Positions 3,289-20,774 of a DNA stretch of 64,000 nucleotides are shown one piece after another. The notes beneath the pieces were generated by a model. It saw nothing but the letters and a program-made list of their open reading frames with translations, ran no database searches and was not told the origin of the DNA. The position numbers and the translations under genes were made by a program. Source of the DNA: Candidatus Cloacimonadota bacterium (GTDB lineage: Bacteria > Cloacimonadota > Cloacimonadia > JGIOTU-2); the NCBI GenBank assembly GCA_049903315.1, contig JBNGBT010000008.1, positions 32,001 to 96,000 on the forward strand. Direction: 5' to 3'. Every line of letters starts with the position of its first letter. The first letter of the stretch is position 1.

Positions 3289-3318
3289 CGCATCCTCCAG
3301 GATATTTTTTATAAACAT

Positions 3319-5148
3319 TTAAGGGCTAATTTGTACGATCTTCATACCCTCATTATCGATAAGCAGTTCATAACTGCCAAAATGAGTTAGTGAAGAAGGT
3401 TCTGTGGTCATTACATAATAACCGAGAATAAATGGATCTATAATTGAAGAAATATCAATTGTGATCAAGCCAATTTCGGAATCAGAAACATATGCATAGG
3501 AGTTAGTTACGTGAACTCCATTAACAAATCCATCAGTTTCTACCTCTGCTGTGTATGCAGGAGATGAAGGATTTGAGACATCAAGAATCAAGAGACCATC
3601 CTCGCTGTTTGCAATAAAAGCGTAGTTATTTTGAACAAAAATATCTTTCGCACCCGAAGTTGTATACGTGGAACTCAGGGTAGGATTATAGGGATCTGAG
3701 ATATCAAAAATTGCTATTCCATCTAAGCCCTGTGCAACATACGCGTGAGTTCCATCAACATAAATACTTTGAGCGTGACCGCCTGTTGTAATATTTGTCA
3801 CGGAATCAGGTGTTGAATTTGAAATGAAGAAAACGGTCAAACCATTGTCACCATCAGCTATGTACGCAAAATCTCCGACTACTTCAATATCGTATGGGAT
3901 GCCGGAAGTAGAGCTGCTTCCTGATAATTGAGGATTCAATGGGTTTGTGATATCAACCGTTGATATGATACCCGGAGCAGTACTGCCGCTATGACTTGTT
4001 ACATATAAAAAATTGTCCTCTACGTCAGAAGAAAGAACGCGGTCCTCAAAATCAAACATCGTATGCACAATATCAGGATTTTCAGGATTCCCAAAATATA
4101 TAATCTGCAAGCCTTCATAATTGTCCGGAACATAGGCATACCAGCCGGACGTGATAATATCCTGAGCAATACCTGGGGTGTTTACAAAACCGATGAGATC
4201 AAGAAGGACATTGGTCTGAGCTTCTTCGCTGTTTGCAGAAGTATAAATGCCGGAATATGCATTCACACGATAAGAGAATGTGCCGCATGGTTCTGTGATG
4301 TTGTCAATAAAGGAAATTGTGTTGCTATCGACCGTTGCATAATTGGTCACCCAATCTGTACCGCCGATCTTTTTATCAATATTAAAACCGACCTCTCCTT
4401 CACTGTTATCCTGCCATGTGAGTTTTATCTTGTTTTGATCGAGTTTCTGCAATGCAAGATTCGATGGGGCTAAAAGCGTAGGCACGATAGAATTTTCGAT
4501 TGATGAAGATGTCGTTGTGCCGACAAATGCTGAAACACGATAGAAGACCTCCTCAAAAAGATTAACGTCATCTATAAAAGAAGTAGCGCTCGCATTGAGA
4601 GTTCTGTATTTGCTTGTCCAGTTGCCTGTGCCTATTTTTTTATCAATATAAAAACCCTCATCACCAATACAATGGTCTTTCCAGCTTACTTCAACACGCG
4701 ATTGCGTTTTCTGTTCGATGATGAGATCGGTAGGATCACAATAGGTGGACATGTAAGCAACGACTTTTGAATAGGGAGAGGATTCATCAGTTGATTTATT
4801 GAGAAATTTTATCTTATATGCGTACACAAGACTGTCGTTTGTGGGAATGTTATCAAGATAAGTGAAAAATTGAGTTGAAATATTTTGATAACTATCGTTC
4901 CAGCTTCCTGTACCGACTCTTTTACCGATCACAAAATAGAGCGTATCAGAATCTGCATGATCAGGAATTTGATATGTCCAAGTAATTTCGACTCTACCCT
5001 CATCTGTTTTTTTGATCTTGAGGTTTGAAGGTGCATCAGAGAGATCGGGATCGGTCAAAGTGAGGTCACAGCTTGCAAGGAATAAGAAAATACCCGCAAA
5101 GAGAAGCAGCACGAGCAGGAGGGCGGATTTATTTGTTCTTTTTATCAT
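3319..5148 (-). CDS. Lipoprotein with fibronectin type III-like repeats and C-terminal LVIVD repeats
   Basis: Lipobox FLASC. Repeated 'APSNL...LTWQDNSEGEVGFNIDKK' FN3 units. 'YAYIADGDNGL.I.DIS.P' LVIVD repeats. Start uncertain (5148-5184). Confidence 0.8.
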   Translation of the reverse strand: MIKRTNKSALLLVLLLFAGIFLFLASCDLTLTDPDLSDAPSNLKIKKTDEGRVEITWTYQIPDHADSDTLYFVIGKRVGTGSWNDSYQNISTQFFTYLDNIPTNDSLVYAYKIKFLNKSTDESSPYSKVVAYMSTYCDPTDLIIEQKTQSRVEVSWKDHCIGDEGFYIDKKIGTGNWTSKYRTLNASATSFIDDVNLFEEVFYRVSAFVGTTTSSSIENSIVPTLLAPSNLALQKLDQNKIKLTWQDNSEGEVGFNIDKKIGGTDWVTNYATVDSNTISFIDNITEPCGTFSYRVNAYSGIYTSANSEEAQTNVLLDLIGFVNTPGIAQDIITSGWYAYVPDNYEGLQIIYFGNPENPDIVHTMFDFEDRVLSSDVEDNFLYVTSHSGSTAPGIISTVDITNPLNPQLSGSSSTSGIPYDIEVVGDFAYIADGDNGLTVFFISNSTPDSVTNITTGGHAQSIYVDGTHAYVAQGLDGIAIFDISDPYNPTLSSTYTTSGAKDIFVQNNYAFIANSEDGLLILDVSNPSSPAYTAEVETDGFVNGVHVTNSYAYVSDSEIGLITIDISSIIDPFILGYYVMTTEPSSLTHFGSYELLIDNEGMKIVQISP

Positions 5149-6325
5149 CATTATCCTCATCATTATTAAAAAGGTTTGACGCATCTTGGTTCTTTATACG
5201 ATGTTCCTCGATCTGTTGCTGCGTGGATAAGGCTTCTTTCTTACGGTCGTTGATAGGTTTAGAGATTTCCGCTTTAATAATAACAATCATTTCTCGCACA
5301 TTCGTCTCATACCTGTTTGATCCAGTAAGATAACGTATGCCAAGCACCCACCAGGGAAGATCTTTCAAGATTGGGATGCCAACCCGCGTCACAGTTTCGT
5401 CTGTATCGTATAAGCCACCGATAACTGTTTCCTCTCCATCATAGAGCAAAACTTCTGTCGAAGATTCGCTTTTATTAATGATGGTGCTGAGTTCACCTGG
5501 AGTTGCCGAGCTTTTTTGTACGCTTGCAACAAGATGAATAGCTTCGATATTTTCGTCCTCAACAACTGTCGGGGTCACAGTCATGATCACACCCGTCTGG
5601 AAAAACTCGTCAGTAACATTGCCGGCATCATCTTTCTTTTTCACAGAGAAATCTTGTCCGACCTGTATTTCACCTGTTTTACCGGAGATAACTATTACAG
5701 AAGGGCGTGCGATAATAGTGCCCTTCTGGTGTGATTCAAGAATAGTGAAAAGGGTATTAATATCGATGGAGACATCTCCGGACTCAAGCTTTGTCGCAGC
5801 AGATGCATTAAAGATATCCTGTCCGACACCAGCTCCCTTGAAATTTATCGATGCAACAACTTTTCCGTTGAAAAGGGTTGACCAGTCGATCCCGATACTG
5901 TTAAGAACAGATTTATCCGCTTTGAAAAATATGGAAGATATCTTAACCTGCTTTGTGTCGGGTGTGATATCTGCCTCCTCTCCCAATTCTTCTTGGAGTT
6001 CTTCAGCGGCATCTTTGATCACATAGGATCCGGGAAGGTCTTCAAGCACAAGATCATTAAAATTAATGATAAGAAAGAGAGCATTTTTCCAATATACTTC
6101 TTTAACGGGTACACCGATCGTTCCGGTAAATGAGCTCATATTAATGATCTTTTTTCCTTCAAATTGGATAGACATTACTTCGAGCGCACGAACCGCTTCC
6201 GGGAAAGGTGTGTCACGGGTCATTGAGACCAGTTCCTTATATGAAAATTCGTCATAGACCCATTGGGCGAATAAGGAAACTGTGGTGAATGAAAAAATTA
6301 AAAGTAATAGAATTATTTTTTTCAT
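5129..6325 (-). CDS. pilQ: Secretin (PilQ/GspD family), short form without AMIN domains
   Basis: Signal peptide and secretin motifs (IIARPSVIVISGKTGEIQVGQ, DGEETVIGGL, GIPILKDLP). Located in pilus cluster. Confidence 0.85.
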   Translation of the reverse strand: MKKIILLLLIFSFTTVSLFAQWVYDEFSYKELVSMTRDTPFPEAVRALEVMSIQFEGKKIINMSSFTGTIGVPVKEVYWKNALFLIINFNDLVLEDLPGSYVIKDAAEELQEELGEEADITPDTKQVKISSIFFKADKSVLNSIGIDWSTLFNGKVVASINFKGAGVGQDIFNASAATKLESGDVSIDINTLFTILESHQKGTIIARPSVIVISGKTGEIQVGQDFSVKKKDDAGNVTDEFFQTGVIMTVTPTVVEDENIEAIHLVASVQKSSATPGELSTIINKSESSTEVLLYDGEETVIGGLYDTDETVTRVGIPILKDLPWWVLGIRYLTGSNRYETNVREMIVIIKAEISKPINDRKKEALSTQQQIEEHRIKNQDASNLFNNDEDNDDKKNK

Positions 6326-7197
6326 AATTCATTTCCCTGTAAATACATTTTAACTTCTTGGTTAATACCAATTCGATTAATATTAAATACAGCGCATTGC
6401 TGTTTCCAGTTTATATAGTTGAGATAACCGTATGCAACCCGTGAGCCGGGCACAAGAGTCACAATTTGTCCGTTCATATCCCTGAGGAAGACCTTATCCG
6501 GAGTAAGACCTATGATAACAGAAGCATTTATATTGATGTATTTTTCTTCTTCAGTTCTGTCGAACGGTGCATGGATTTGTGAATAGAAAGGATTATATGT
6601 AAGATTTGAATAACTAAAACTCCGGAATGGTATCTCAGAGATTTGAGTACCGGTTTTCTTGTCATAATACACATTCAGCTTAAGAGAGAAATCAACGGTA
6701 TCTTTGAGGGCAGCTGAGGTTTCTGAAATTCGTATAGTTTCGATTACATAGAGAGGGGCTTGATATTCAACCTGATAGAGAAAGAAATGAAGTAATTCAA
6801 TATTTCCCGCCCCGTTCAAGGTATACGAATTAAAAGGAAGGTCTCCTTTTTTGCCACCCTGAGCGACCTTGAAATCAAAATTAAGACCCGGAGTAAAAGT
6901 CTCAGTGATATCAATAAGGTATTGGTATGTTTGACTGGGATTGTCTGTTTTCAGTATTATTTTATTATTTTCCAGAGCTTTTTTCTTCATTTCTTCAAGA
7001 GAGGCGATTATTTCATCTGTTTTATCAAGATCGGGATTGGTCTTTTTGAGCTGATTGAGTGTTTGTTGGTTTTCCTGAAAAACCCTTTCGCTCTTGTCAA
7101 GCCGCTTTACGGATTGAGAATTTGAGAGCATACCCACGAAGAAAACGAGGATGAGTAGTACACCAAGGATGATAGAGTTTCTTATTGCATAGGGCAT
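6322..7197 (-). CDS. PilO-like alignment protein with C-terminal PilP-like beta domain
   Basis: N-terminal TM, coiled coil and ferredoxin-like core (FLYQVEYQAPLYVIETIRI). Then an 'NPF' motif and a beta domain (VFLRDMNGQIVTLVPGSRVAYGYL). Lies between pilN-like gene and secretin. Confidence 0.65.
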   Translation of the reverse strand: MPYAIRNSIILGVLLILVFFVGMLSNSQSVKRLDKSERVFQENQQTLNQLKKTNPDLDKTDEIIASLEEMKKKALENNKIILKTDNPSQTYQYLIDITETFTPGLNFDFKVAQGGKKGDLPFNSYTLNGAGNIELLHFFLYQVEYQAPLYVIETIRISETSAALKDTVDFSLKLNVYYDKKTGTQISEIPFRSFSYSNLTYNPFYSQIHAPFDRTEEEKYININASVIIGLTPDKVFLRDMNGQIVTLVPGSRVAYGYLNYINWKQQCAVFNINRIGINQEVKMYLQGNEL

Positions 7198-7201
7198 TGC
7201 A

Positions 7202-10066
7202 TCAATCCTTTACTTCTATTGCTTTGAGCTGAGCAATATCAGCGAGACGATTGTGGGGATAACGGGATATCAGCTCGTTCCAGTAATAAAGAGCTTTGTC
7301 CTTATCATCGAGCCGATAATATGAATTGCCAAGCATCATCAGGGCATCAGGCGATTTAACAGAATTGTTTTCAACAACAGCGCTGAAAATTGTAATTGCT
7401 TCCGGAATATTGCCCATTTGGTACTGAGCTTCTCCGGTAAAATATTCGGCATGTGATGCGAGTTCACTGTCTGGATATTTCCTTAGAAATGAACAAAAAT
7501 CATCATATGCGCCCCGAAGATCATTCGCAAAATATTTATCTAGAATGGCGGAGTACGTATTTTGAATTTCTTCCTGATTGTTCACCTTTGGCTCTTCTAC
7601 AGTTTTATCAACCGATTCATGTGCGACATCAACCTTCGTGATCCAAAAATCATGATAGGCATTCTGCTGCATGCTGATCTTCTGTCCAAGGTCAAGTGCT
7701 TCATTTCCGGAAAGTAGATTATCAATCCGAAGTCTGTAAATAACACCCTGACTGGTAGATACTGGAATAATTTTAGTATCAAATCCAGCTAATTTGAGTT
7801 TTTTCTGTTCGTCAAGAACAGTAGCATAGTTGCCATCAGCATACAATTGAAGCTCATATTGTGTCTCAAGCTGATTTTCCTGAACTTGGATTTTCTTTGT
7901 TTGTTCAAGTTGAGATTCAGTTTGAGAATATTGGTTCATTTTTTCATTTGCAATTGACGCCAAACGATTATTGGGATATTCATGAATTATCCGATTCCAA
8001 TAAAATTTTGCCTGCTCAACATTGTTGTTTTTTGCATAGGCATTTCCGAGCATCATAAGAGCATCCGGAGTTTTAATACCATTCTGAGTAACAACTTTAT
8101 CAAAAACGAGAATTGCCTGATCGATATCATCCATTTGATACAAACACTCACCCAAAAGATAGCTTGCACTGTGAGAATACTTGCTCTCCGGGAAGTCAGA
8201 AAGGAATTCCTTGAATTGGTCATATGCTTTCTGGAAATTTCCGGAAAAATAGAGCTCAATTATCTGATTATACCGGGTTTTATCATTATTTGAAAAAGTC
8301 TGAGGTTTCTTCACAGGCTCTTCTTGATTCTCTTCAGCTGGAGTGAAATTTTCTATTTGAACCTGGGGCGATTTAAGGTGCTCTTTATTTTTTATGAATT
8401 CAATACCTGGGCCACCTTCCTTTTTTTGCTTTGCTATTTCAATGGGATCAGGATATCCAAAAGTGATATCGTATTGCCAAATCTGTACATTTTGTATAGT
8501 GTTTTCAGTAACCTTCTCAACATTGCCATTTGGGAAAAGATTCGAAAACGGGATCACATTCCTTTTTCGTGTAGTAAAACCACTCACCTTGAACGTTTTA
8601 TCCTGGCTATTCAGAGAGGTGAGCCAGCTAATCTTGTGGTCTTTAAATGAATTTGAAATAACATTTAATATATAGTACCACTGATTTTTATTACCAATTA
8701 GTTTATCAACTTTTTTTAGATTTTCCTGAAGGACTTCGATATCACCCTTAACTTGTTGAAGTTTGATAACGATGGCGCGGTTCTTCCTCAATTCAAGTTC
8801 GACCTGACTATTTTCTCGGTTAATCTCGATAATTTCTTTTCCAACATTAAGATTTTTAAAAGTTGCAGAGAAGGCAACATAGAAGATAGCAGTAAGTACA
8901 ATAAAACCGTGCCAGGCAATTTTAAAGGGTTTTTGGTTTTCAATTATTTTGGACGGAAGAAGATTACAGGGATAGAAATTTCTGTTTCGTCCCTCAAGAG
9001 ATTTCCAGGCGAGGGCAATCGGAATACAGTAATCTGCAATGCGCTCTGGCGGAAAAGTTTCTTCTTTTGCCTGAGGAATGTGCAACTTTTCAAGGGAGAT
9101 GCGAGAAATTTGAGCACCGGAATTGATCCTGTTGCGGAAAAATTCAACATCGTCATCTTTTGCCATTTCACCAGTCAGAATGATATTGCTTGTGATATTT
9201 ACATTTGAAGTATCTTGCTCAAGAATTATCTTTGAGTAGATCACTTGTCTCATGTGCTCGAGGTCGGACTCAGGGACGATAAGAGGGAAGTTCTTTACGA
9301 AATCGTTCCCCTTCATTACAATACCGAATTTGGTGTCGATGCCGATATAGATCAACAATACATATTCATCAGCCGAAAAATCGTAATTATTGCGAACAAG
9401 ATTCATGAGAGAAACTTCAATTGGTTCGATAAAGCTGTAGAAGAATCTCTTCTTGGAAATGAGCGGATTTATATCCTGTAAGGCATGAAGTATATCATTA
9501 CTGCCTGTTTCTGTAAAGGAGAGAATAGAGTTATCTTTATTTTTTATAAAATCAAAGGTATTATCTTTATTTTTCTGCTCTTCTTTTGAGAGGAGCTCGT
9601 CCTTTAGTTTCTTTTTGATTTTGGACCGGGAATGCGACTGGGAAAAGGTTTCATCAAACTGAGTAAATGAGATGTCTTCTTCAAGAGCATTCATTGATAT
9701 TCTGCATGTATCAAGAGGAAATTGTGAGATAAGTTTTTGAAATTCCTGCTTACCCGTCATTATGGGTTCTGCTTCTTCGGCAGATCCATAATCAGCTTCT
9801 TCTAGCTCTGCAAGGTCAGGGATCTTAAAATCCTCAGAAAAGTCTGCGAGATCTGGAATTGGTTCTTCATCTTCAGATTCGATATGTAATTCAGTTTCGG
9901 GTTCATCATGTTTTTCCTCATGGGGGTATAGAGGAAAAGAAAGAGTCGTTTCTGTAAGCTCTGTGAGACTTATCTTCCCATTAATAACCGATAGCTGGGC
10001 GGCTTTAATGGTCAAGCCATCCTGGTAAATACCAAGTGCAGTTTTTCCGTTTTTAATTAATTTCAT
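7202..10066 (-). CDS. PilM-PilN fusion with CpoB/YbgF-like TPR, SPOR-like and second TPR domains
   Basis: Actin-like start (TALGIYQDGLTIKAAQLS). PilN 'NLLP' motif, TM, coiled coil and WLTSL..FKVSGF. Two TPR blocks with 'F...FP.S..A.Y..GE...K.PDALMMLG' flank a SPOR-like segment (YELQL..KLKLAGFDTKI..IYRLRI). Confidence 0.75.
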   Translation of the reverse strand: MKLIKNGKTALGIYQDGLTIKAAQLSVINGKISLTELTETTLSFPLYPHEEKHDEPETELHIESEDEEPIPDLADFSEDFKIPDLAELEEADYGSAEEAEPIMTGKQEFQKLISQFPLDTCRISMNALEEDISFTQFDETFSQSHSRSKIKKKLKDELLSKEEQKNKDNTFDFIKNKDNSILSFTETGSNDILHALQDINPLISKKRFFYSFIEPIEVSLMNLVRNNYDFSADEYVLLIYIGIDTKFGIVMKGNDFVKNFPLIVPESDLEHMRQVIYSKIILEQDTSNVNITSNIILTGEMAKDDDVEFFRNRINSGAQISRISLEKLHIPQAKEETFPPERIADYCIPIALAWKSLEGRNRNFYPCNLLPSKIIENQKPFKIAWHGFIVLTAIFYVAFSATFKNLNVGKEIIEINRENSQVELELRKNRAIVIKLQQVKGDIEVLQENLKKVDKLIGNKNQWYYILNVISNSFKDHKISWLTSLNSQDKTFKVSGFTTRKRNVIPFSNLFPNGNVEKVTENTIQNVQIWQYDITFGYPDPIEIAKQKKEGGPGIEFIKNKEHLKSPQVQIENFTPAEENQEEPVKKPQTFSNNDKTRYNQIIELYFSGNFQKAYDQFKEFLSDFPESKYSHSASYLLGECLYQMDDIDQAILVFDKVVTQNGIKTPDALMMLGNAYAKNNNVEQAKFYWNRIIHEYPNNRLASIANEKMNQYSQTESQLEQTKKIQVQENQLETQYELQLYADGNYATVLDEQKKLKLAGFDTKIIPVSTSQGVIYRLRIDNLLSGNEALDLGQKISMQQNAYHDFWITKVDVAHESVDKTVEEPKVNNQEEIQNTYSAILDKYFANDLRGAYDDFCSFLRKYPDSELASHAEYFTGEAQYQMGNIPEAITIFSAVVENNSVKSPDALMMLGNSYYRLDDKDKALYYWNELISRYPHNRLADIAQLKAIEVKD

Positions 10067-10080
10067 TATTTATTGAGCAA

Positions 10081-11295
10081 TTATGAATATGTAAGAAGCT
10101 GCTCCATTCTCTTTCTATTATTGGAGTAGTTTAGAGCCACTTCTTTTGTGATTTCACCTTTCTTGTAGAGATTGAAAAGGTCTTGTTCCAGGGTTATCAT
10201 CCCATATTTCTTACCTTCAGTGATCATCTGGTAGATTTCACTAATGTTTTGATTTCGAATCGCAGCTTTAACAGAAGGGGTTACAGAAAGAATTTCTTTT
10301 GCGAGACTTCGTTTACCTTCTTTATTTGGAACTAATTTTTGTGAAAGTATTACAGAGAGTGTATCAGCAAGACGGAGACGAATTCGTTCTTGTTCCCGGG
10401 TTGGGAATTCGCCGACTATTCTGTGAAGACTGTCGACAGCTGAGCTTGTGTGAAGAGTAGAGAACGCTTTATGTCCGCTGTCTGTTGCTTCCAGGACTCT
10501 CGCGATAGTATCGGGATCTCTCATCTCGCCAACTATTATCACATCAGGATCCTGACGCAACGCCTGCACAACACCATTTTTAAAAGAAAGCACATCTTCC
10601 CCAACCTCTCTGTGGCGGAGTATACACCTGTCAGATTTATGAACATATTCAATAGGTGCACCGATGATAATAATATGTGCATCATTATTATGATTGTTCA
10701 TATCTATAATCGAATCCAAAGTGCTACTCTTTCCCGAACCCGTAATACCGGTAATGAGAATTAGACCTGATTTCTCATATTGCAGATCCATTCTTTGAAT
10801 GATCGGTTCAGGAAATCCGAGGACTTCAATTTTCAAGAGATTCTGATTGATTCTGCGGAAATTACCTACAAGCACATTGCTTTCATAATAGATATCACTA
10901 CGAAATCTGCTGGGACGCTCACCTTCTTCAAGAACCATTCCGACAGAAAGGTCAACATTTTTATCTTTAAAAAGAAGAACTTTCTGATCATCCGATAACA
11001 CGCTGAGAAGAATAGCGGTAACCTCATCATTATTATAATGTGGCATCTCAGCATTCGGGGATTTATTTCCGTAAATCCTGTACCAGACATTGTTGTTCGA
11101 GCCGGGTCCGCCGATATCAAGGTCAGAAGCATCTATTTCCCGCATGTACTTCAGGAGCTTGCGAAGGTGTTCATATGCCTCTTCCCGCCATGCTGCATTG
11201 TAAGTTATGATTTTATTAATGTTCTGAAAACGGCTTGTTCCAGTTAAATATTCTGGTAAACCAACAAGCATTTCCGGAGTAAATGATAAGCCCAT
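10081..11295 (-). CDS. pilT: PilT/PilU family type IV pilus retraction ATPase
   Basis: Walker A GITGSGKSST, ALRQDPDVIIVGEMRD, His box GHKAFSTLHT, GM.TLEQDL. Confidence 0.85.
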   Translation of the reverse strand: MGLSFTPEMLVGLPEYLTGTSRFQNINKIITYNAAWREEAYEHLRKLLKYMREIDASDLDIGGPGSNNNVWYRIYGNKSPNAEMPHYNNDEVTAILLSVLSDDQKVLLFKDKNVDLSVGMVLEEGERPSRFRSDIYYESNVLVGNFRRINQNLLKIEVLGFPEPIIQRMDLQYEKSGLILITGITGSGKSSTLDSIIDMNNHNNDAHIIIIGAPIEYVHKSDRCILRHREVGEDVLSFKNGVVQALRQDPDVIIVGEMRDPDTIARVLEATDSGHKAFSTLHTSSAVDSLHRIVGEFPTREQERIRLRLADTLSVILSQKLVPNKEGKRSLAKEILSVTPSVKAAIRNQNISEIYQMITEGKKYGMITLEQDLFNLYKKGEITKEVALNYSNNRKRMEQLLTYS

Positions 11296-11362
11296 AGCTG
11301 TCCTGCCTATGCTTTTTTATTGTTGATGATCATGATCACTATAAAAATCTTGTTGAAAAATA

Positions 11363-12214: not shown

Positions 12215-12231
12215 ATACTAACCTGCTATAT

Positions 12232-13131: not shown

Positions 13132-13155
13132 ATGTCTATCCTTATATGTTTTTTT

Positions 13156-14046
13156 TTATCCTTCATTCCATTCAAATATTTCAATTGATATATCTATTGG
13201 AAAAGCATTAAAGGCATCTCTCACGACATCTGCGTCGAAGGATACCTCGGCATGAGCCCCCAATGATGAATCACCAATCACATACACTGCGCCGGTTATA
13301 TTGGAATGCGCACCAAAATTCACATCACCAAAAACAACTAAAATGCCACTAAAATCAATTTGAGCTGTTGCATTAAGATCTCCATTAATAATGAGGATCC
13401 CTGCACCAGACCAGAAAGATTGAACACGTAAATTGTTGTCCATCCAGGTCAGGCTATCGGGCATTGGTTCATTATTCGCAGGAGTTTCTATGTATGAGCC
13501 CAAGGACACACACTCATCCATAATTTCTTGTTCTGTAAAACCGAAAACCTCTTCAAAATTGAATATGGAATCTTCAACAACAGTTCCATTTACTACAGCA
13601 TGAGCTTTAATCGTTATTGAGCCGCCAGTGACAATTGCAGCAGTTATATTAGAAACAGTTCCTTCGTCGGTATAAAATCCAAATCGTGCAAATGCGTGAT
13701 GAGTTGCATGAGATTCAAGCTCTTGATAGCTTACATAAGAATCCAAACGTACCGTACCACCGGACATTCTGGAATAGGTGATACTATCAATCGAGCCGTC
13801 AAAAACATTCATTGGCACGAAGTTATCAATCGAACCGTGAGTACTGTCCGTAAATGTGACATTTCCTTTGAGAAGTTCGCTCATACCATACTGAAGAGCA
13901 TAATTCGAAAGAGATCGTGCTTGACTGTTTGCAACATCATCGGTGACAATCACCGGCACTTTATCGCTACCCTTGCTGCTTGAGACAACGATTACTACTA
14001 CTATAGCGAGTAGTAGAAGCGAAATGATAAGGATAGCTTTTCCCAT
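13156..14046 (-). CDS. PilX-like minor pilin with C-terminal beta-helix/solenoid
   Basis: MGKAILIISLLLL hydrophobic N-helix, 'QARSLSNYALQYGMSEL' PilX-type segment, GILIINGDL/FSGILVVFG repeats, terminal 'EIFEWNE'. Confidence 0.65.
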   Translation of the reverse strand: MGKAILIISLLLLAIVVVIVVSSSKGSDKVPVIVTDDVANSQARSLSNYALQYGMSELLKGNVTFTDSTHGSIDNFVPMNVFDGSIDSITYSRMSGGTVRLDSYVSYQELESHATHHAFARFGFYTDEGTVSNITAAIVTGGSITIKAHAVVNGTVVEDSIFNFEEVFGFTEQEIMDECVSLGSYIETPANNEPMPDSLTWMDNNLRVQSFWSGAGILIINGDLNATAQIDFSGILVVFGDVNFGAHSNITGAVYVIGDSSLGAHAEVSFDADVVRDAFNAFPIDISIEIFEWNEG

Positions 14047-14050
14047 GATA

Positions 14051-15961
14051 TTACGGCATCCAGTAAAGTATCTCTATATCCTCGAGCTCACCTGCTTCTG
14101 CTGATTCCTCGTCCATTGGTTCAGGTTCGGACTCTGGCTCTGGTTCAGGTTCGGGAAGTCCCGGATCGGGTGAAACTGTCGGTTCATTACAGATTATCTC
14201 AATCCACCAATGACCCATTGCGTTGCCGGGTCCTCCGACATTTCTCAAATTAACTGTCATATCATCTGAGGTTATAGTATAGGTAGTCCCTGTTGCCATA
14301 GAAATTACTGTTTCATTCACAATAATAGTATTTCCACCGGATTTAGCACGCAATCGAATTTCAGTAGCTGCTCCAGCATAGGTATACGATGAACCACCTG
14401 ATAGAAGTGTTGCTCTATCAATCTGACCGCTTGGTGTTTGCATTCTGAAACTTCGTGAGGAGTTGTTTGTAGGATTGATATTAAGATCAGCTTCCATTGA
14501 GAGTGCTGGAGTTTCTTCTTCATCTTCAGGTTCTCCGCCACCATCTACTTCATCACCGCCACCGGAATAGCTGACGAGAATTGTTGCAAAGCTTGTATGA
14601 TCATTTTCGTTCCCATATTCATCTTCACTGACAAGAGCTGTGATATCAACCTGTACAGTATATGCACCAGTCACAACAGGGGTTTCTTCTTCAGTGTCCT
14701 CGATGTCGGGAACAGGATCTGTCCAGCTGGTACTTGCAGTTATATTTCCACTTCCGGTAATACTAAGAGTGTTTGCTACAAGTATGCCGCTGATACTTCC
14801 GGATCCGGTAATTGAAGCTGCTGCATTTGGTGCATACAGAGCTCGAACATATGCATTTGCCGCTCCGTTCACATCAAGCGTAGAACCTCCGCATATGATG
14901 TGACCCGTAATACCTCCAGAGCCGCCGATACGAAGATTAGCAGATTCGATATACATAGAGCCATTGTACGTCGTGGCGCCAGCAAGATTAATATCTGTTG
15001 CACCGGAATAGTACATGTGAACCTTGCTTGCGTCTCCACCGGTATTTATGATGCTGCTTCCTGTGAGGGAAAATGAGTTTTCAACATAAAATATCAAATT
15101 GCCGGTTCCCTGGAGTTCAATAAAACCCTGTCCAACACTCAAGGTGCCAACAACGATCCTTCTCGTTCCGGAGCCGACATCTATAGTAATTGTTCGTCCA
15201 CTCGTAGCGCTGATAGAGGAATAATATCCATCATCATCAATAAGATAAACACCAGAAGAAGACCATGGCGTACTGAAGGCACCCCGGTCAGTAAGCTCGG
15301 GGAAGTCCGGATATGTGGGAAGTGGATATGTGCGGGCTGCAGGAAGATTCGAAATGGTTCCGGTAATATTATCTTCAGGGGTGCGCCCCCAGCCGGCTGA
15401 GTTTATCACGTCATTATAGTCAGCACCAGGACCGACATAAAAATCTCCATCCACCTGAGTACTCCATGCAAAATTGACACTGTTTGTGGCAGTGGAATTC
15501 GTTCCTGTCGTTCCGTCGATGCTTGCACTGCCACTAAGAGTAATAGCACCGTTTGAAAAGATCATATCTAGAGCTGGTATGGTAACAGATTCCCCTTCCT
15601 CTTCCTCCTCTTCTTCCTCTCCTTCTTCACCTCCTCCTTCTGTTGTTACGGGGTCTCCAAAATCATAGGTGATCATATCTATACTTCCGTCAAGAGCAGG
15701 AACATCAAAAAATGCATAATGGTACGAGCCACTTTCGTCATCAAAAATAGATGAGTTTGACTCGGTGATAACTTCGTTACGGACCTGTTTAATAGCCCAC
15801 TTGAGTGCATATGCCCCGAGATTTATAAGATCTGACCGCACTTCTTTTTGTGAGATCTTTTCAGGAATCACATCAGCTTTTCGTTCAACAGAGAGAGTAA
15901 CAGACGCAATAACGACGATAACAGCAAGAAGTAATGCCATTATTAAAACTGCTTTGCCCAT
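14051..15961 (-). CDS. Large PilX-like minor pilin/adhesin with inserted beta-solenoid domain and acidic linkers
   Basis: ATG at 15961 follows AGGAGG. MGKAVLIMALLL N-helix paralogous to 13156-14046. G/S-rich 'GSMYIESANL..GGSG..GALYAPNA' repeats, poly-E and PEPE linkers, terminal 'EILYW'. Confidence 0.65.
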   Translation of the reverse strand: MGKAVLIMALLLAVIVVIASVTLSVERKADVIPEKISQKEVRSDLINLGAYALKWAIKQVRNEVITESNSSIFDDESGSYHYAFFDVPALDGSIDMITYDFGDPVTTEGGGEEGEEEEEEEEGESVTIPALDMIFSNGAITLSGSASIDGTTGTNSTATNSVNFAWSTQVDGDFYVGPGADYNDVINSAGWGRTPEDNITGTISNLPAARTYPLPTYPDFPELTDRGAFSTPWSSSGVYLIDDDGYYSSISATSGRTITIDVGSGTRRIVVGTLSVGQGFIELQGTGNLIFYVENSFSLTGSSIINTGGDASKVHMYYSGATDINLAGATTYNGSMYIESANLRIGGSGGITGHIICGGSTLDVNGAANAYVRALYAPNAAASITGSGSISGILVANTLSITGSGNITASTSWTDPVPDIEDTEEETPVVTGAYTVQVDITALVSEDEYGNENDHTSFATILVSYSGGGDEVDGGGEPEDEEETPALSMEADLNINPTNNSSRSFRMQTPSGQIDRATLLSGGSSYTYAGAATEIRLRAKSGGNTIIVNETVISMATGTTYTITSDDMTVNLRNVGGPGNAMGHWWIEIICNEPTVSPDPGLPEPEPEPESEPEPMDEESAEAGELEDIEILYWMP

Positions 15962-16050
15962 GGGCACCTCCTGACCAAAAATTTTTTTCTTCCAGCAAAA
16001 AACAACTTATTTTGCCTTTTTGTCAATACTTTTAATAATTATTATAAATA

Positions 16051-16599
16051 CTATATATATAGATTCTTAAAATATTTCCAAATTTGGATACGATGCAGGA
16101 TAAATCTTTTATCAATATCTTCACGAAAGGTATCATATTGAAATTCCATAATCATTTGAACATAGCGAACAAGAGAATCAGCTGGATTAGGATTATCATT
16201 GACATCATAATAAGTGAACTGAATACCAAAATCCGAGAGCTCAAATGGACCAAGAACAGGTGTGACACTTCCGTCAACATAAACAGCGAGTTGTTTATTA
16301 TCGGCAAGATCTTCCTGTGCCATATTCACAATATGCCTGGCGCCGCCCACACTATCAGCATAGGAAAAGGTAAAGAGCGTATCCTGTGTAGAGATGACAG
16401 CAGAATCTGCAACACCAGCTCCCACGAGAGAAAGATAACTCTCTATTACTGATACAACATCTTCAGAGATTTCGACCAACTCAATCTGTTCATTTATATT
16501 AACACCGGCTGCATGAAGATTAATAATTGATGTGATCATAGTAAGAATGAAAATTCCACCAATTATTGTTGCACCAATTGCTTCTAATATCGCAGCCAT
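16051..16599 (-). CDS. PilW-like minor pilin (leaderless)
   Basis: N-terminal hydrophobic helix MAAILEAIGATIIGGIFIL. C-terminal 'IQFTYYDVNDN...VRYVQM...KNL' typical of PilW/GspJ-like proteins. Operon context. Confidence 0.6.
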   Translation of the reverse strand: MAAILEAIGATIIGGIFILTMITSIINLHAAGVNINEQIELVEISEDVVSVIESYLSLVGAGVADSAVISTQDTLFTFSYADSVGGARHIVNMAQEDLADNKQLAVYVDGSVTPVLGPFELSDFGIQFTYYDVNDNPNPADSLVRYVQMIMEFQYDTFREDIDKRFILHRIQIWKYFKNLYI

Positions 16600-16601
16600 A
16601 A

Positions 16602-17036
16602 TTAATAATATAAATCCACAAACACTTTGCTTATTGGATATTGCGGCATACCGATCCAGAGAGTATCACCATCCGGATGGAGAGCCCACATGCTCATATC
16701 AACCCGAATAAATTCGGGAGTTACTGTAGCCGTGTCAGCTCCGGTTACTGTGCAGGGAGTTGTAGTAATGTTAAGATGATAAACCAAATCAGACACAGTT
16801 AGAGAATCGGAGCGACCATTATATGAGGTCTGAAGTCCATCAAATGGTAAAATGTTACCCAAAATCTTTGCCTCTATCTCTTGAAAGTATTTATCAAGTA
16901 TTTTTTGTCCGTTTAAAAGATACATTCCTTTATATGCAAGATCAGCCTGGTCGAAAAGGCTATTATATGTTGTCAGATATATGGTGGAAAACAGTACCAT
17001 TGCAAGAAGGATAAGGAATATCTGTCCGTAGGTCAT
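16602..17036 (-). CDS. PilV-like minor pilin (leaderless)
   Basis: MTYGQIFLILLAMVLFS hydrophobic helix followed by amphipathic helix '..GQKILDKYFQEIEAK'. Directly downstream of pilB. Confidence 0.55.
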   Translation of the reverse strand: MTYGQIFLILLAMVLFSTIYLTTYNSLFDQADLAYKGMYLLNGQKILDKYFQEIEAKILGNILPFDGLQTSYNGRSDSLTVSDLVYHLNITTTPCTVTGADTATVTPEFIRVDMSMWALHPDGDTLWIGMPQYPISKVFVDLYY

Positions 17037-17038
17037 TA

Positions 17039-18823
17039 TTAACCCTCAGATGTCGCATAGGACACTTCAGAAACTGATGTCAGCCCTTTGCGTATCCTAT
17101 CCAATCCTGAATCAAGAAGAGAAAGCATGCCCTGTGTTTCTGCAATTTTGCGTATTTTGTCTTCATCGATATCATCGCCGGATTCCATGATAGCTTTTCG
17201 TATTTCATCTGTGAAGTAGAGTGCCTCGCAGATATTTACACGGCCTTTATAACCGTTCATGCATTTTTTGCAGCCATTACCGGCTTCATACACTAAGCCC
17301 TTTTTTAGATCTTCTTCTGTCAGTCCAAGTTCAAGAGCTCCTTTATACTTGTCTCGGGAAAGAGGGCGTCTACACTCTGGACAGAGTTTTCTTACCAGAC
17401 GCTGGGCGATAATTATGTTCATTGCATAGGCAAGAAGGAAGGTTTCGACCCCCATTTTATAAAGCCGTGATATTGCACTTGGTGCATCATTTGTATGAAG
17501 TGTAGAGAATGTTAAATGACCCGTGTTTGCCAATTTTACGGCTACATCAGCAGTGATCTTATCGCGGATCTCACCCACCATTACAATATCAGGGTCATGA
17601 CGGAGAATTGAACGAATCGCCTGATCAAAGGTCATTTTTGCGCCGATCTTTAATTGTCGTGCTCCTTTGATAACATACTCAACCGGGTCTTCACAGGTGA
17701 GCACATTTTTGGAGGGATCAATCACATGATGAAGGGCAGCCATAAGAGTCGTACTTTTACCACTGCCGGTAGGACCAGTGAGTAAAATAATCCCTTTGGA
17801 TTTATTAACAGCCTTGAGGAAATCTGATTCCGCCTGTTTTTGTAGACCCAATTTTTGAAGATCAGTAATTACATTTCGGTCATCAATAACACGGATCACA
17901 ATACTTTCAAACCGGCGTTCATACTCAGAAGAAATAATTGGAAGCACAGACACACGAAAACGGATCAAATAACCGTCAACAATTCGCTGCGCAAAACCAT
18001 CCTGAGCATTGTCTCTTTCAAACCTATCGATTCCGCTTGTTCGGTCTTTCACAACTGCGGCAATAGCTTCAGGAGAGGTTTTTTCCTGGCGGTGCCATTG
18101 AATCAGTTTGCCATCAACACGGAACAGAAAATCAACATTGGAACGTTGATAAGGTATGATATGAATATCACTTGCCCCTTTTCGAACTGCCTCGATAAGG
18201 CTTCCTTCAAAAAGGTTGACGAGTAAGCTTTTGTTGATCTCATCATCAAGAGCATATTCGTCTAGCCCCTCTTCTTTTCCTTCTTCCGGAACTTCCTCGA
18301 TCTGCTCGCCGGCTTCACTGAGAATTTCCAAAAATTCGTTTTTTTGAGGAGCGATTATCTTTATGAGTTCCTCGACAGTAGATAAAGGGCAGTAGGCTAC
18401 CTCGTATTTTTTAAACTCAGTATTCAGCGGGATTTTTTCCACAATTTTATCAGTCGGATCAGCAGCAAGAATCACTAAAGTAGTGCGTCTTCCTTGTGCG
18501 ATTTGATAAGGAAGCACCTTCCTATACAGCAATTCACGTTTCAGATCATCAGGAAACTTTGAAAGTATATCTCTCGTATGTTTTATTTGAGTTTGATCCA
18601 GCTTATCTACATTGATTTCTACTTTTCTAAAAGCATAAAGATCGGCAAGAAGTCCATAGACATCATCATGTTTGACCTTAAGGTCAGCAACCAGAATGTC
18701 CTCCAATCTTCTGGGATTGGATGGATCTTCATCTGCCTGAATGATAAGAGCTTTATTTAAGACATCTTTATCAATAACGCCTTTATCAACTAATAGTTTG
18801 CCTAAGCGTGATTTTCCTAACAT
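17039..18823 (-). CDS. pilB: PilB/GspE assembly ATPase with N-terminal MshEN (c-di-GMP-binding) motif
   Basis: RLGKLLVDKGVIDKDVLNKALIIQ (MshEN), ASDIHI, GPTGSGKSTT, TCEDPVEY, LRHDPDIVMVGEIRD, tetracysteine CPEC/CKKC. Confidence 0.92.
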   Translation of the reverse strand: MLGKSRLGKLLVDKGVIDKDVLNKALIIQADEDPSNPRRLEDILVADLKVKHDDVYGLLADLYAFRKVEINVDKLDQTQIKHTRDILSKFPDDLKRELLYRKVLPYQIAQGRRTTLVILAADPTDKIVEKIPLNTEFKKYEVAYCPLSTVEELIKIIAPQKNEFLEILSEAGEQIEEVPEEGKEEGLDEYALDDEINKSLLVNLFEGSLIEAVRKGASDIHIIPYQRSNVDFLFRVDGKLIQWHRQEKTSPEAIAAVVKDRTSGIDRFERDNAQDGFAQRIVDGYLIRFRVSVLPIISSEYERRFESIVIRVIDDRNVITDLQKLGLQKQAESDFLKAVNKSKGIILLTGPTGSGKSTTLMAALHHVIDPSKNVLTCEDPVEYVIKGARQLKIGAKMTFDQAIRSILRHDPDIVMVGEIRDKITADVAVKLANTGHLTFSTLHTNDAPSAISRLYKMGVETFLLAYAMNIIIAQRLVRKLCPECRRPLSRDKYKGALELGLTEEDLKKGLVYEAGNGCKKCMNGYKGRVNICEALYFTDEIRKAIMESGDDIDEDKIRKIAETQGMLSLLDSGLDRIRKGLTSVSEVSYATSEG

Positions 18824-18839
18824 ATATTTTCCTTAACTA

Positions 18840-20183
18840 TTACATACCGGGTGTTTTGGGCGAAACTGTTGCGATTTCTGCAGAAACAACAGTTAATGCT
18901 GTTATAACAATACCAATAAATGCTCCTATAAGTGTTTGAATAGATGAAATCAGATTTTGCATTTTGTAGGTTGTTTCTTTTTCATAAAATTTTGCGATCT
19001 GTTGAGCCGCAGTCAGCACATTACCGGTTTCCGAACCTGTTTTGAATCTACTTAAGGTTGTTTGATTAAACACCTTTGCTGCGGCAAGTGCAGGCACAAG
19101 GGACATCCCTTCCTTAAGCATCAGCGGTATTGTTATTTCTTTAATATTTTTTTCCATGTGTGCATTTCTACACGCCTCAGCAGACGCTTGAATTGTTTCA
19201 ATGTTGTTTTCAGCGCCAGAATATATTGCTGCGAATACACGACAGAAAATTTCTATGCTGGATTTATGTAGGAGTTTGCCAATAACAGGAAGCTTGATAA
19301 TCATAGCATCACGCCAAACGCGGCCATCAGGTGTCCGCCACCAAATACCTAAACCAATGATTGGTATAATTACCATGAATGCCATCCACCACCAATTGGC
19401 TGCAAAGAAATCACTCATCTGAAGTGTGGCAGCAGTAAGCTTTGGCACCTCAACACCGGATTTTATAAATAATTCCGCAGTAGTGGGAAAGATAGAAATA
19501 ATATAATAAAGCACAGCTGCGATCATTGCCAGAACAGTGAACATCGGTGTCATCAATGCCTGTTTCAAGCTCTTTTTATATTCCATATCCCGTTCCATGA
19601 ACTTCGCAGTTGCATCATACACTTCTGCCATGTTACCACTTTTGGTAGCAAGACCAAGCATATAAGCGGGGAATTTACCAAAGACATCAGCATATCGGTT
19701 AAAAACCTCTGTTCCTTCTTTACCCTTTTTAAGTTCACTTTCAATTTTTTTCAGCGTGGATCTTAGTGTCGGGTTTGTTTCTTCTTCAGCAAGCATACGT
19801 AGAATTTTATCATAGCTCATTTGTTCCTTGAGCAGGAAGGAGCTGAGATTGACGAACATAAGGATATTTGCAAAGGATGGTTTGGATTGAAAGTCAAAAA
19901 TTACGGGCTCGATCTTCGCATTAGTATATCCAATTCTTGCAAGCGCTTGTGCGAGTTCTAGCTTAGAAAAAGCAACTTGTTTTCCCTTAACCTTTTTACC
20001 GCTTGGTAGTTTTATTTTATAGATGAAGTTTGTTTTTTGGTCAATTTGATTTACAGAAATATTCTGCTTTATTTCAGTATCATGAATGAGCTTTTTGGCG
20101 TTTGATTTGGAGCTTGCAAGAACAACGCCCTGAACAGAATTACCTGATTGGTTAATTCCTGTATAGCGAAATTCTTTTAACAT
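18840..20183 (-). CDS. pilC: PilC/GspF inner-membrane platform protein
   Basis: EFRYTGINQSGNSVQG start, two T2SSF repeats, 'IIKLPVIGKLL', GSETGNV, three TMs. Confidence 0.88.
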   Translation of the reverse strand: MLKEFRYTGINQSGNSVQGVVLASSKSNAKKLIHDTEIKQNISVNQIDQKTNFIYKIKLPSGKKVKGKQVAFSKLELAQALARIGYTNAKIEPVIFDFQSKPSFANILMFVNLSSFLLKEQMSYDKILRMLAEEETNPTLRSTLKKIESELKKGKEGTEVFNRYADVFGKFPAYMLGLATKSGNMAEVYDATAKFMERDMEYKKSLKQALMTPMFTVLAMIAAVLYYIISIFPTTAELFIKSGVEVPKLTAATLQMSDFFAANWWWMAFMVIIPIIGLGIWWRTPDGRVWRDAMIIKLPVIGKLLHKSSIEIFCRVFAAIYSGAENNIETIQASAEACRNAHMEKNIKEITIPLMLKEGMSLVPALAAAKVFNQTTLSRFKTGSETGNVLTAAQQIAKFYEKETTYKMQNLISSIQTLIGAFIGIVITALTVVSAEIATVSPKTPGM

Positions 20184-20201
20184 GATAGGGGATTATGAAA
20201 A

Positions 20202-20240
20202 ATCAGGGAGGTATACGTTATAAAACTATACCTCCCAGAT
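20202..20240 (-). terminator. Probable intrinsic terminator after the major pilin gene
   Basis: Inverted repeat GGGAGGTATA(20206-20215)/TATACCTCCC(20227-20236), followed on the minus strand by TGATTTTTC. Lies between pilin and pilC. Confidence 0.7.
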
Positions 20241-20262
20241 ATTACATTAAATAGAAATACGA

Positions 20263-20685
20263 TTAGTTATCGATAACCATCGCAACAGGGTCCGTGGAAG
20301 TGGCAACAACAGTGGCAGTAATTTTTGTGTTAGTAGCAGAGCTATTACCCGGTTCAGTACCAGTTCCAACAATTGTGATTGTACTCGCGTTCGTACGGGT
20401 GAGTGTATAGGTGCCGTTGTCATTGGTGTATGTATTGTCACCATTAAATCCAATCCATACAACAAGTGTGTCCATAGAAGCTTCGAATGTTCTTCCGCCA
20501 CCACCATGTGATGTAGGGGTTTTGTAATAAGCGATCATTTGAGATGCAAAGTTGTTTGCATCTGCAACCAAAGCTTGACGGTTAGCATTTTGTGCCTGGG
20601 TATTAAACATTGTAATACCTACTGCAACGGCAATACCTACGATAATAACGCTCAATACGATGAGCAGAATTTGTTGAGTTCCCAT
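20263..20685 (-). CDS. Probable major type IV pilin, leaderless (MGTQQILLIVLSVIIVGIAVAVG)
   Basis: Strong AGGAGG RBS. Pilin-like hydrophobic N-helix, amphipathic helix and Thr-rich beta head. Has its own sigma54 promoter and terminator and lies upstream of pilC/pilB. Confidence 0.75.
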   Translation of the reverse strand: MGTQQILLIVLSVIIVGIAVAVGITMFNTQAQNANRQALVADANNFASQMIAYYKTPTSHGGGGRTFEASMDTLVVWIGFNGDNTYTNDNGTYTLTRTNASTITIVGTGTEPGNSSATNTKITATVVATSTDPVAMVIDN

Positions 20686-20758
20686 GGGATCCTCCTGGGT
20701 TTTTTATTGTTCGTAACTTACAAACTTCACGTCTATAAAACAATTCATAATTTTATAG

Positions 20759-20774
20759 AACAAGTTTCGTGCCA
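20759..20774 (-). promoter_or_regulatory. Sigma54 (-24/-12) promoter of the pilin gene
   Basis: Minus strand TGGCACGAAACTTGTT versus consensus TGGCACGNNNNTTGC. About 75 bp upstream of pilin ATG. A bEBP gene is nearby. Confidence 0.75.

Follow-up and report, generated by a model that had tools for sequence, protein, structure and literature searches.

A type IV pilus-like system with leaderless pilins in Cloacimonadota and other phyla, possibly independent of the prepilin peptidase PilD

A stretch of 64,000 nt from the genome of a Candidatus Cloacimonadota bacterium (assembly GCA_049903315.1, contig JBNGBT010000008.1, positions 32,001–96,000, forward strand), referred to below as the window, carries a type IV pilus-like system in which all five pilin-like proteins start almost directly at their hydrophobic N-terminal helix. 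We conclude, with a probability of about two in three (0.68), that this system is a complete, retractile type IV pilus-like machine belonging to an old, separate lineage, the pilins of which are leaderless and need no prepilin peptidase. A possible independence of PilD had been suggested by a reading of the sequence alone, and it is supported by the fact that most of the carrier genomes elsewhere lack a detectable A24 peptidase and that pilD has been deleted in two relatives of the window's genome (G081 and G200). Since the comparative genomic data show pilD to be undetected or deleted in genomes where the operon is kept, the PilD-independent interpretation is well supported. The genome of the window is called G000 here, and the other G numbers denote the genomes with which it was compared.

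Starts of the Pilin Genes

The open reading frames (ORFs) were defined as the longest frame running from the first ATG, GTG, or TTG after a stop codon. The five pilin-like ORFs described in the sequence-only reading were all present on the minus strand (window positions 13156-20685), and since each of them is already the longest ORF after a stop, no standard start codon is available to lengthen any of them. In the case of the major pilin, the ribosome-binding site AGGAGG (20691-20696) and an in-frame TAA (20704-20706) precede the ATG with no start codon between: the upstream sequence reads TAA-AAA-ACC-CAG-GAG-GAT-CCC-ATG, with the stop 6 codons upstream, which excludes a hidden leader. The same holds for the PilV-like gene (minor pilin 1 below), where an in-frame TGA (17046-17048) is followed by GGG TTA ATA ATG, leaving 3 codons; the stop codon of pilB itself is at 17039-17041. 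Hidden leaders read from alternative starts are therefore ruled out by the in-frame stops. No class III leader ending in Gly or Ala was found, as the pilin-like ORFs begin at the helix itself; the hydrophobic helix alpha1-N (20–25 residues) is present both in the sequences and in the AlphaFold2 (AF2) models, where it forms part of helices 3-55 and 3-59. None of the five proteins matched PF07963 (N_methyl), of which no match over the cut-off was found in G000, and the major pilin did not match any pilin family in Pfam or NCBIfam.

The homologues do not carry normal leaders, and most of their starts follow the MGxQQ pattern. A word-indexed search gave 872 homologues, among which all the named organisms are Cloacimonadota, and 117 of the 120 homologues listed start with MG[TM]QQ. 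In a profile search of 1.84 billion representatives, which gave 1,831 matches at E ≤ 0.001, 135 of the 148 new representatives listed begin with MGxQQ (MGTQQ in 80 and MGQQQ in 35). In addition, a pattern scan using one genome per species yielded 520 confirmed stretches, 78 loci of which were kept. These come from Ignavibacteria/Ignavibacteriota, Melioribacteraceae, Calditrichaeota, Kryptoniota, KSB1, "Bacteroidetes" metagenome-assembled genomes (MAGs), two Gemmatimonadota MAGs, and Stygiobacter electus 09-Me. In these loci from other phyla, 110 of the 116 pilin ORFs have no ATG, GTG, or TTG between the upstream stop and Met1, and at most 10 codons separate the two in 100 of them; in 30 Cloacimonadota loci with 33 pilin ORFs, the corresponding figures are 30/33 and 26/33. 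A Shine-Dalgarno-like motif precedes all 33 of the latter ORFs and 89 of the 116 former ones. Two of the 120 homologues listed have an open upstream frame with a basic extension (MEEKEKKMG... and MIGTRGKGEKMG...), and these are probably start-calling artefacts.

The 5′ half of the pilin gene is covered by metatranscriptome contigs from four runs, two of which show 0 differences. In the RNA-library contigs of relatives, the similarity to the window breaks off immediately upstream of the ATG, which was used only as a hint of where homology ends, as such contigs show neither the transcript start nor whether they originate from RNA or DNA.

Distribution of the Prepilin Peptidase

In the Ignavibacteriales-like order around S. 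electus (101 genomes, with completeness filtered at ≥90%), the MGxQQ pilin was identified in 90 genomes, the peptidase family PF01478 in 7, and PF07963 over the cut-off in 8. No PF01478 match was found in 84 of the 90 pilin-positive genomes. Six of the seven PilD-positive genomes carry canonical N_methyl pilins, located in five cases within about 4 kb of pilD, and PilD thus seems, from these gene contents, to track the canonical pilins and not the MGxQQ system. As a control on the search, PF01478 was detected in 12 of 14 control genomes. The chromosome record of an Ignavibacterium sp. (G208) also lacks a PF01478 match; its PilB ORF is short and lies beside masked sequence, and this genome was not counted as a clean case. 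The draft genome of S. electus 09-Me (G207) encodes two MGQQQ pilins, PilC, PilB, PilT, PilM/N-like and PilO/P-like proteins, and a secretin; neither PF01478 nor PF07963 was found in this draft.

The situation differs in the 201 Cloacimonadota genomes surveyed, where the MGTQQ pilin occurs in 150, PF01478 (PilD) in 179, and PF07963 in 171. One of them, G112, carries a textbook type IVa pilus (T4aP) cluster closed by pilD, which comprises PilA (MFKNLQNQKG/FTLIE, the slash marking the cleavage site), PilT, minor pilins, PilMNOPQ, PilB, PilC, and PilD. These counts, together with the canonical cluster of G112, indicate that most Cloacimonadota carry two systems. One minor pilin in this canonical cluster (locus L048, G112:C60:55000-73114) reads G/FGIIQ, with a Gln at +5 behind a normal leader.

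The window's own order (23 of these genomes) has largely lost the canonical system, and 12 of its genomes carry an MGTQQ pilin without any PF07963 match. PilD is kept in 9 of these 12 (G000, G054, G062, G078, G100, G144, G030, G041, and G135) and was not found in the other 3 (G191, G200, and G081). The statement in the sequence-only reading that the window encodes no prepilin peptidase is correct, since the sole PF01478/PF06750 match of G000 is on another contig (C55). The genome-wide search which that reading had proposed found no PF07963 pilin in G000 and one PilD.

The synteny around this pilD gene shows what became of it in the relatives. In G000 and G062, the gene order is histidine kinase (HK)-mazG-pilD-outer-membrane protein (OMP), and in G200, G081, and G065, it is HK-mazG-OMP, with 42–150 bp between mazG and the OMP gene. 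The pilD gene is cleanly deleted at the syntenic site in G081 and G200, where the operon is kept, and in G065. PF01478 was not found in any of the three genomes, and a search with the PilD protein of G000 was negative for G081 and G065, its one match in G200 (E 0.48) being at the level of chance. G200 and G081 keep PilB (frames of 596 and 638 codons, respectively), PilC, PilT, the minor pilins, and from one to more than nine major pilins, which still begin with MGTQQ; G200 also keeps the secretin. In G065, no MGTQQ pilin and no PilB, PilC, or PilT match was found. The N-termini of the leaderless pilins are the same in the PilD-positive and PilD-less genomes. G191 was rejected as a case of pilD loss because the mazG neighbourhood is also absent from its assembly, which makes it uninformative. 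The canonical pilins of G102, a member of the window's genus, lie on a single contig of about 2.5 kb which may be a binning artefact, and this genome was left out of the evidence.

Predicted Folds of the Pilins

The AF2 models of two of the five pilin-like proteins show the lollipop fold of pilins, in which a long helix is packed on an antiparallel sheet, in keeping with the expectation that the folds would be pilin-like. The model of the major pilin (30 homologues; predicted local distance difference test, pLDDT, 82.4) consists of helix 3-55 and a four- to five-stranded sheet. In an alignment-independent structure search (VIA; 48,161 chains), its best matches were GspK (Z 8.5), Thermus PilA4 (Z 8.4; model residues 2-140 on chain residues 1-113), and PilE (Z 8.3), and pilins occupied 14 of the top 16 rows. 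Foldseek gave no match at E ≤ 0.001 for this protein against the PDB; the PAK pilin 1oqw was matched with a template modelling (TM) score of 0.63 and a probability of 0.85. The model of minor pilin 1 (pLDDT 85.7) has helix 3-59 plus a sheet, and XcpV (Z 8.7), EpsI (Z 8.5), and GspI (Z 8.4) were its best VIA matches, ahead of a fourth at 7.0. As this protein matches the GspI family best, the label "PilV-like" given to it in the sequence-only reading is apt.

Organization of the Operon

All the genes of the system lie on the minus strand in one operon-like block (window positions 3319-20774), the features of which are as follows, in the direction of transcription.

20759-20774, minus strand: sigma-54-like −24/−12 promoter TGGCAC-N5-TTGTT, about 75 nt upstream of the major pilin ATG
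20691-20696, minus strand: ribosome-binding site AGGAGG, 5 nt before the ATG (20683-20685)
20263-20685, minus strand: major pilin, 140 amino acids (aa), leaderless, beginning with MGTQQILLIVLSVIIVGIAVAVGITMF (MGTQQILLIVL); in-frame stop, fold model, homologues
18840-20183, minus strand: PilC-type platform protein, 447 aa; PF00482 at 2.8e-25
17039-18823, minus strand: PilB-type extension ATPase, 594 aa; PF00437 at 4.7e-99
16602-17036, minus strand: minor pilin 1, GspI/PilV-like, 144 aa, leaderless (MTYGQIFLILL); in-frame stop, fold model
16051-16599, minus strand: minor pilin 2, 182 aa, leaderless, beginning with MAAILEAIGATIIGG (MAAILEAIG); acidic residue at position 6
14051-15967, minus strand: large pilin-like protein, 638 aa; PF23981 (DUF7305) at 1.1e-11
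13156-14046, minus strand: pilin-like protein, 296 aa (MGKAILII), with a PilX-like N-terminus; sequence
12232-13131, minus strand: PilS-like membrane histidine kinase fragment (six transmembrane segments plus HisKA), 299 aa; PF00512 at 4.5e-06, PF25323 at 6.2e-05
11363-12214, minus strand: response regulator (REC plus cNMP-binding-like), 283 aa; PF00072 at 1.2e-30, PF00027 at 1.1e-06
10081-11295, minus strand: PilT-type retraction ATPase, 404 aa; TIGR01420 at 321 bits (cut-off 319.1), PF00437
7202-10066, minus strand: putative PilM/PilN-like (GspL-like) fusion protein, 954 aa; tetratricopeptide repeat (TPR) and YbgF matches
6322-7197, minus strand: putative PilO/PilP-like protein, 291 aa; language-model similarity of 0.91–0.93 to PilO/PilP clusters, a lead only
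5129-6325, minus strand: secretin, 398 aa; PF00263 at 6.7e-28, best NCBIfam match PilQ
3319-5184, minus strand: LVIVD-repeat/fn3 protein, 621 aa; PF08309 at 2.9e-37

Pfam and NCBIfam thus confirm PilB, PilC, PilT, and the secretin, which the sequence-only reading had listed, and the leads for the PilM/N/O/P-like parts are weaker. The best NCBIfam match of PilB is TIGR02538 (PilB), at 404 bits and under the cut-off, with GspE at 375 bits; that of PilC is GspF/PilC, below the equivalog cut-off. The 954-aa protein is PilM/PilN-like over its first 570 residues, with a weak PilN match (E 0.058) at residues 401-600 and a language-model feature similarity of 0.95–0.97 to clusters named PilM, PilN, or GspL, which is a lead only. 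The 291-aa protein has no Pfam match, and minor pilin 2 has none either. The window holds the sole T2SSE and T2SSF genes of G000, which means that there is one type IV filament machine in this genome. Among the 15 proteins covered by the Pfam scan, none matched T2SSG, T2SSL, T2SSM, or GspC.

The start of the 638-aa protein is a GTG in the longest frame, giving MPMGKAVLIM; the probable start is the ATG at 15959-15961, giving MGKAVLIM. Around residue 110 of this protein (14051-15967), about 13 Glu/Gly residues stand in a row; its DUF7305 core is beta-helix-like, and its acidic tail reads PEPEPEPE. It may be the PilY1/PilC-type tip protein of the system. The 296-aa protein matches PilX_N only at E 0.86, and its orthologues in G200 and G081 begin with MGKTLLI and MGKIALI. 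The gene of the LVIVD/fn3 protein shares 56 nt with the 3′ end of the secretin gene, and a 616-aa orthologue directly follows the secretin in G200; this protein may be exported as cargo, serve as an adhesin at the tip, or act as a partner in the outer membrane.

The promoter motif TGGCA[CT]-N5-TTG[CT] occurs at most 200 nt upstream of 24 of the 33 pilin ORFs in the Cloacimonadota loci. The response regulator of the operon has no sigma-54 activator domain, and a sigma-54-activator-like ORF lies directly upstream of the pilin array in G200. No ATPase domain was detected in the 299-aa PilS-like sensor. The sensor and regulator (11363-13131), located between the minor pilins and PilT, are kept in G200 and do not occur in the operons of the other phyla. 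In the Cloacimonadota version of the 954-aa protein, residues ~575-954 consist of two YbgF/CpoB-like TPR modules flanking a SPOR-like domain, and this C-terminal extension is possibly a peptidoglycan anchor; the PilM/N-like orthologues in Ignavibacteria, Calditrichota, and Kryptonia are only 523–534 aa long.

The gene order is the same across the loci of the other phyla. Among the 78 loci, the genes beside the pilin are those of PilC (70 loci), PilB (69), PilT (66), PilM/N-like (48), PilO/P-like (43), and secretin (31), the last counts being limited by the flank length of the retrieved loci. PilB, PilC, and PilT of the window score up to 700, 439, and 432 bits, respectively, against their cross-phylum orthologues, vs. 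252, 108, and 206 bits against the canonical T4aP genes of the Cloacimonadota genome G112, and on account of this gap, the MGxQQ system and the canonical T4aP can be regarded as old paralogues. At locus L149 of G200 (G200:C134:9000-28999), positions 1748-11959 carry at least nine tandem major-pilin paralogues, all beginning with MGTQQ[IV]L, and the genome has 15 profile matches; its two pilin blocks are separated by genes that look mobile, an ATPase and a PIN-like ORF. This tandem array suggests pilin variation or exchange.

An Orphan Prepilin-Like Protein as the Likely Substrate of PilD

A strict scan of G000 for class III signals with E, D, or Q at +5 yielded nothing. In a relaxed scan, an orphan ORF (C66:36620-36979, plus strand; locus L157:6621-6980) was identified, which sits among housekeeping genes and encodes a protein of 119 aa reading MLRNSKG/FSIYTVISIIAVIALAIILLVPQFY. 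This protein carries Thr at position +5, contains three Cys, and has no match in Pfam. The orphan is present in 21 of the 23 genomes of the order and shows 90–99% identity within the genus. Its Gly at −1 is kept in all seven of the PilD-positive genomes read (G000, G144, G062, G135, G093, G030, and G022), as well as in G191 and G204, the PilD state of which is not known. In the PilD-less genomes, the N-terminus reads MPKVKDKKKK-FSIYT (G065), MAKHKK-FTLYK (G081), and MKN-FNIYK (G031), and G200 keeps the Gly. The −1 Gly is thus lost in three of four PilD-less relatives, which, given the few events and the relatedness of the genomes, is a pattern and not a statistic. As this residue has been replaced in G065, G081, and G031, the cleavage site of the orphan decays with the loss of PilD, while the leaderless pilins remain unchanged. 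Since the orphan persists in G065 and G031, where the MGTQQ pilin was not found, its function is separate from the MGTQQ system. Judging from these sequences, the PilD of G000 most likely serves this orphan, canonical-type prepilin-like protein.

Proposed Mechanism and Alternative Explanations

In the mechanism we propose, PilB, PilC, PilT, the PilM/N-like and PilO/P-like proteins, and the secretin would form one machine together with one major and four minor pilin-like subunits, in a lineage that spans Cloacimonadota, Ignavibacteriota, Calditrichota, Kryptoniota, KSB1, and allies. The pilins are translated without a leader, so that the initiator Met stands directly on the hydrophobic alpha1-N helix. 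The subunits would presumably be inserted N-in by the signal recognition particle (SRP)/Sec route, like ordinary prepilins, and PilB and PilC would draw them from the membrane without a prepilin-peptidase step. Gln5, counted from Met1, would take the place of the canonical Glu5, which would not be needed because the N-terminus would be uncharged. We infer that a filament is actually assembled.

The residues at the N-terminus fit this picture in several respects. The presence of Gln at position 5, which the sequence-only reading had noted in two proteins of the window, proved to be an invariant feature of the major pilin (30/30 and 35/35 sequences in alignments A1 and A3 of its homologues) and of minor pilin 1 (21/21); Gln5 thus stands in both of these proteins where the canonical pilins have Glu5. 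The major pilin shows little or no variation at M1, G2, Q4, and Q5 but varies at residue 3, and one of the 148 representatives reads MGNQE. All 21 sequences of minor pilin 1 have M1 and Q5, and their second residue is Gly in 11 sequences, Asn in 4, Ser in 3, Thr in 2, and His in 1. Asn or His next to Met does not permit Met excision. Since Q5 is fixed even where residue 2 is Asn or His, the retention of Met1 in the subunits is favoured by these alignments. Minor pilin 2 has Glu or Asp at position 6, or at position 8 in an MGxQxI[IL]D subgroup, and its orthologues start with MSVILD, MSSILD, MGSLLD, and MHSFLD. The fuller proposition that a phylum-spanning branch has dispensed with both the class III leader and the peptidase, that Met1 (probably retained and possibly formylated) serves as residue 1 in place of N-methyl-Phe1, and that Gln5 has replaced Glu5 in the absence of a charged, methylated amine that needs neutralising is one to which we would give even odds.

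Several points weigh against PilD independence as a whole. Drafts and MAGs may lack a PF01478 match and still come from organisms that encode the enzyme, and the searches were blind to peptidases of other families. G000 itself has an intact PilD of 252 aa with both catalytic Asp motifs and a Cys-rich methylase loop, which is under purifying selection, as indicated by ratios of nonsynonymous to synonymous substitutions (dN/dS) of 0.13 and 0.12 in two unsaturated pairs within the genus, and a role of this PilD on the pilins of the window is conceivable. Of the two genomes in which pilD has been deleted and the operon kept, G200 has 8% contamination and G081 a completeness of 94%. The filament is predicted from genes, and the fold models cover two of the five pilin-like proteins. 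Lastly, the invariant Gly2 of the major pilin followed by a variable residue 3 is what a −1/+1 cleavage site looks like; in minor pilin 1, the invariant Gln5 comes directly after a Gly4 in 19 of the 21 sequences; and the landmarks G17, G23, and F27 fit the canonical G14/P22/Y24 slightly better when two residues are removed (hand count).

These last features are what would be expected if the pilins had an ultra-short leader (MG in the major pilin and MxxG in minor pilin 1) cut after the Gly by PilD where it is present and elsewhere by an unrecognised peptidase, possibly one outside the A24 family, which would leave maturation conventional in principle. The Gly2 pattern holds in the 30 and 35 aligned major pilins and in the 135 MGxQQ representatives out of 148, G000 keeps a constrained PilD without any PF07963 pilin, and the two extended homologues have basic residues upstream. 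We nevertheless consider such a leader unlikely. There is no A24 peptidase match in 84 of the 90 carriers of the S. electus order, the MGTQQ start is unchanged in G081 and G200 after the deletion of pilD, and minor pilin 1 of G081 reads MGGYQ, with a Tyr instead of the Gly before Gln5. The retention of PilD is otherwise explained by the orphan prepilin, and the extended homologues amount to only 2 out of 120. A two-residue uncharged leader is also without precedent in what is accessible of PMC10191384. Aligned by hhalign with nine canonical PilA sequences of Cloacimonadota, A1 gave a weak 22-column match with a probability of 10%, and hmmsearch against PDB chains gave a weak, gapped alignment with geopilin at E 0.11; neither fixes which of Met1 and residue 3 is the counterpart of the canonical residue 1.

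The second alternative concerns function and leaves the finding that the pilins are leaderless unaffected: instead of a surface pilus, the genes might encode a type II secretion-like endopilus or short-fibre device exporting, for example, the LVIVD/fn3 protein. The best structural matches of minor pilin 1 to GspI-type pseudopilins and of the major pilin to GspK, the 375 bits of PilB to GspE, the position of the LVIVD-repeat protein next to the secretin in G000 and G200, and the fact that the paper on Melioribacter roseus speaks of type II secretion are all compatible with this idea. The surface pilus is favoured, however, by the presence in the operon of PilT, which exceeds the family cut-off and recurs in 66 loci, and by the tandem major-pilin paralogues, with at least nine in G200 and two to six matches per genome in many others, an arrangement typical of exposed pili. 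The best match of PilB is moreover the T4aP PilB, and no GspG/T2SSG family match was found among the proteins scanned; an endopilus is therefore quite unlikely.

It seems very unlikely that the leaderless subunits remain substrates of PilD in G000, for cleavage or for N-methylation only, while the system can do without the enzyme elsewhere. In G000, the enzyme is intact and constrained, and the system of the window is the only type IV filament machine. The orphan, however, has a textbook KG/F site, which has decayed in all but one of the four PilD-less relatives examined; G065 and G031 retain the orphan although no MGTQQ pilin was found in them (the search for PilB, PilC, and PilT covered G065); and the leaderless N-termini are the same with or without PilD.

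Comparison with Known Systems

Type IV pilins are defined by a cleaved class III signal, the leader of which ends in Gly or Ala, according to PMC10191384, and both this cleavable signal and its dedicated aspartic peptidase are counted there and in PMC6668835 among the core, ancestral components of every type IV filament. The system described here resembles the type IVa pilus of Pseudomonas, Myxococcus, and Thermus in its PilB, PilC, PilT, and secretin families, the lollipop fold of its pilins, its set of GspI/PilV-like minor pilins, its sigma-54-type pilin promoter, and its PilS-like sensor. It differs from the type IVa pilus in that it has no leader, no Glu5 (Gln5 being present instead), and no PF07963 signature; in that pilD is absent from the cluster of the window and was not found in most of the carrier genomes; in that its core proteins and the canonical set of the same phylum are distant relatives; and in that PilM and PilN appear to be fused in the window.

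A prepilin peptidase gene is likewise missing from the locus of the MSHA pilus (Denise et al. 2019, PMC6668835). According to that paper, the MSHA pilins have normal class III leaders and the peptidase is borrowed from another system in the same genome. Borrowing of this kind is possible in G000 and in most Cloacimonadota, but it fails in 84 of the 90 carriers of the Ignavibacteriales-like order. The tip minor pilins GspK, PilX, and PilK also lack Glu5, as described for the capping subunit in PMC10191384, and it is GspK that the major pilin matches best in structure; these are, however, single minor subunits the leader of which is still cleaved, whereas in the window the major pilin and all the minor ones are leaderless, and Gln5 is invariant instead of being free to vary. 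The CHU_3191-3202 "T2SS" of Cytophaga hutchinsonii is a cluster from the Fibrobacteres-Chlorobi-Bacteroidetes (FCB) group with divergent PilM/N/O/P-like parts which groups with T4aP and not with T2SS (PMC5553014 and PMC6668835). It was ruled out as the same system by its own Peptidase_A24 (CHU_3197) and its GspG-family pseudopilin, both given in PMC5553014. The system of the window differs from type II secretion systems in having PilT and no GspG/C/L/M family match.

The accessible parts of papers on Cloacimonadota mention type IV pilus genes without remarking on the leader. No description of leaderless type IV pilins was found in the full-text literature, subscription journals and closed supplements aside.

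Implications

If the proposed interpretation is correct, the maturation step can be bypassed and leader cleavage would not be intrinsic to the assembly of type IV filaments, and these pilins would offer a natural comparison for what N-methylation and Glu5 are for. The pilus genes of Ignavibacteria, Melioribacter, and Cloacimonadota have been taken to be incomplete, which this would also explain. Tools that find pilins by the class III motif would overlook the major pilins in this group of abundant anaerobes and sediment bacteria, which would touch the work on adhesion, syntrophy, and the conductive pili proposed in Cloacimonadota. As the carriers include the cultured Stygiobacter electus and Melioribacter roseus, the claim is open to a test at the bench.

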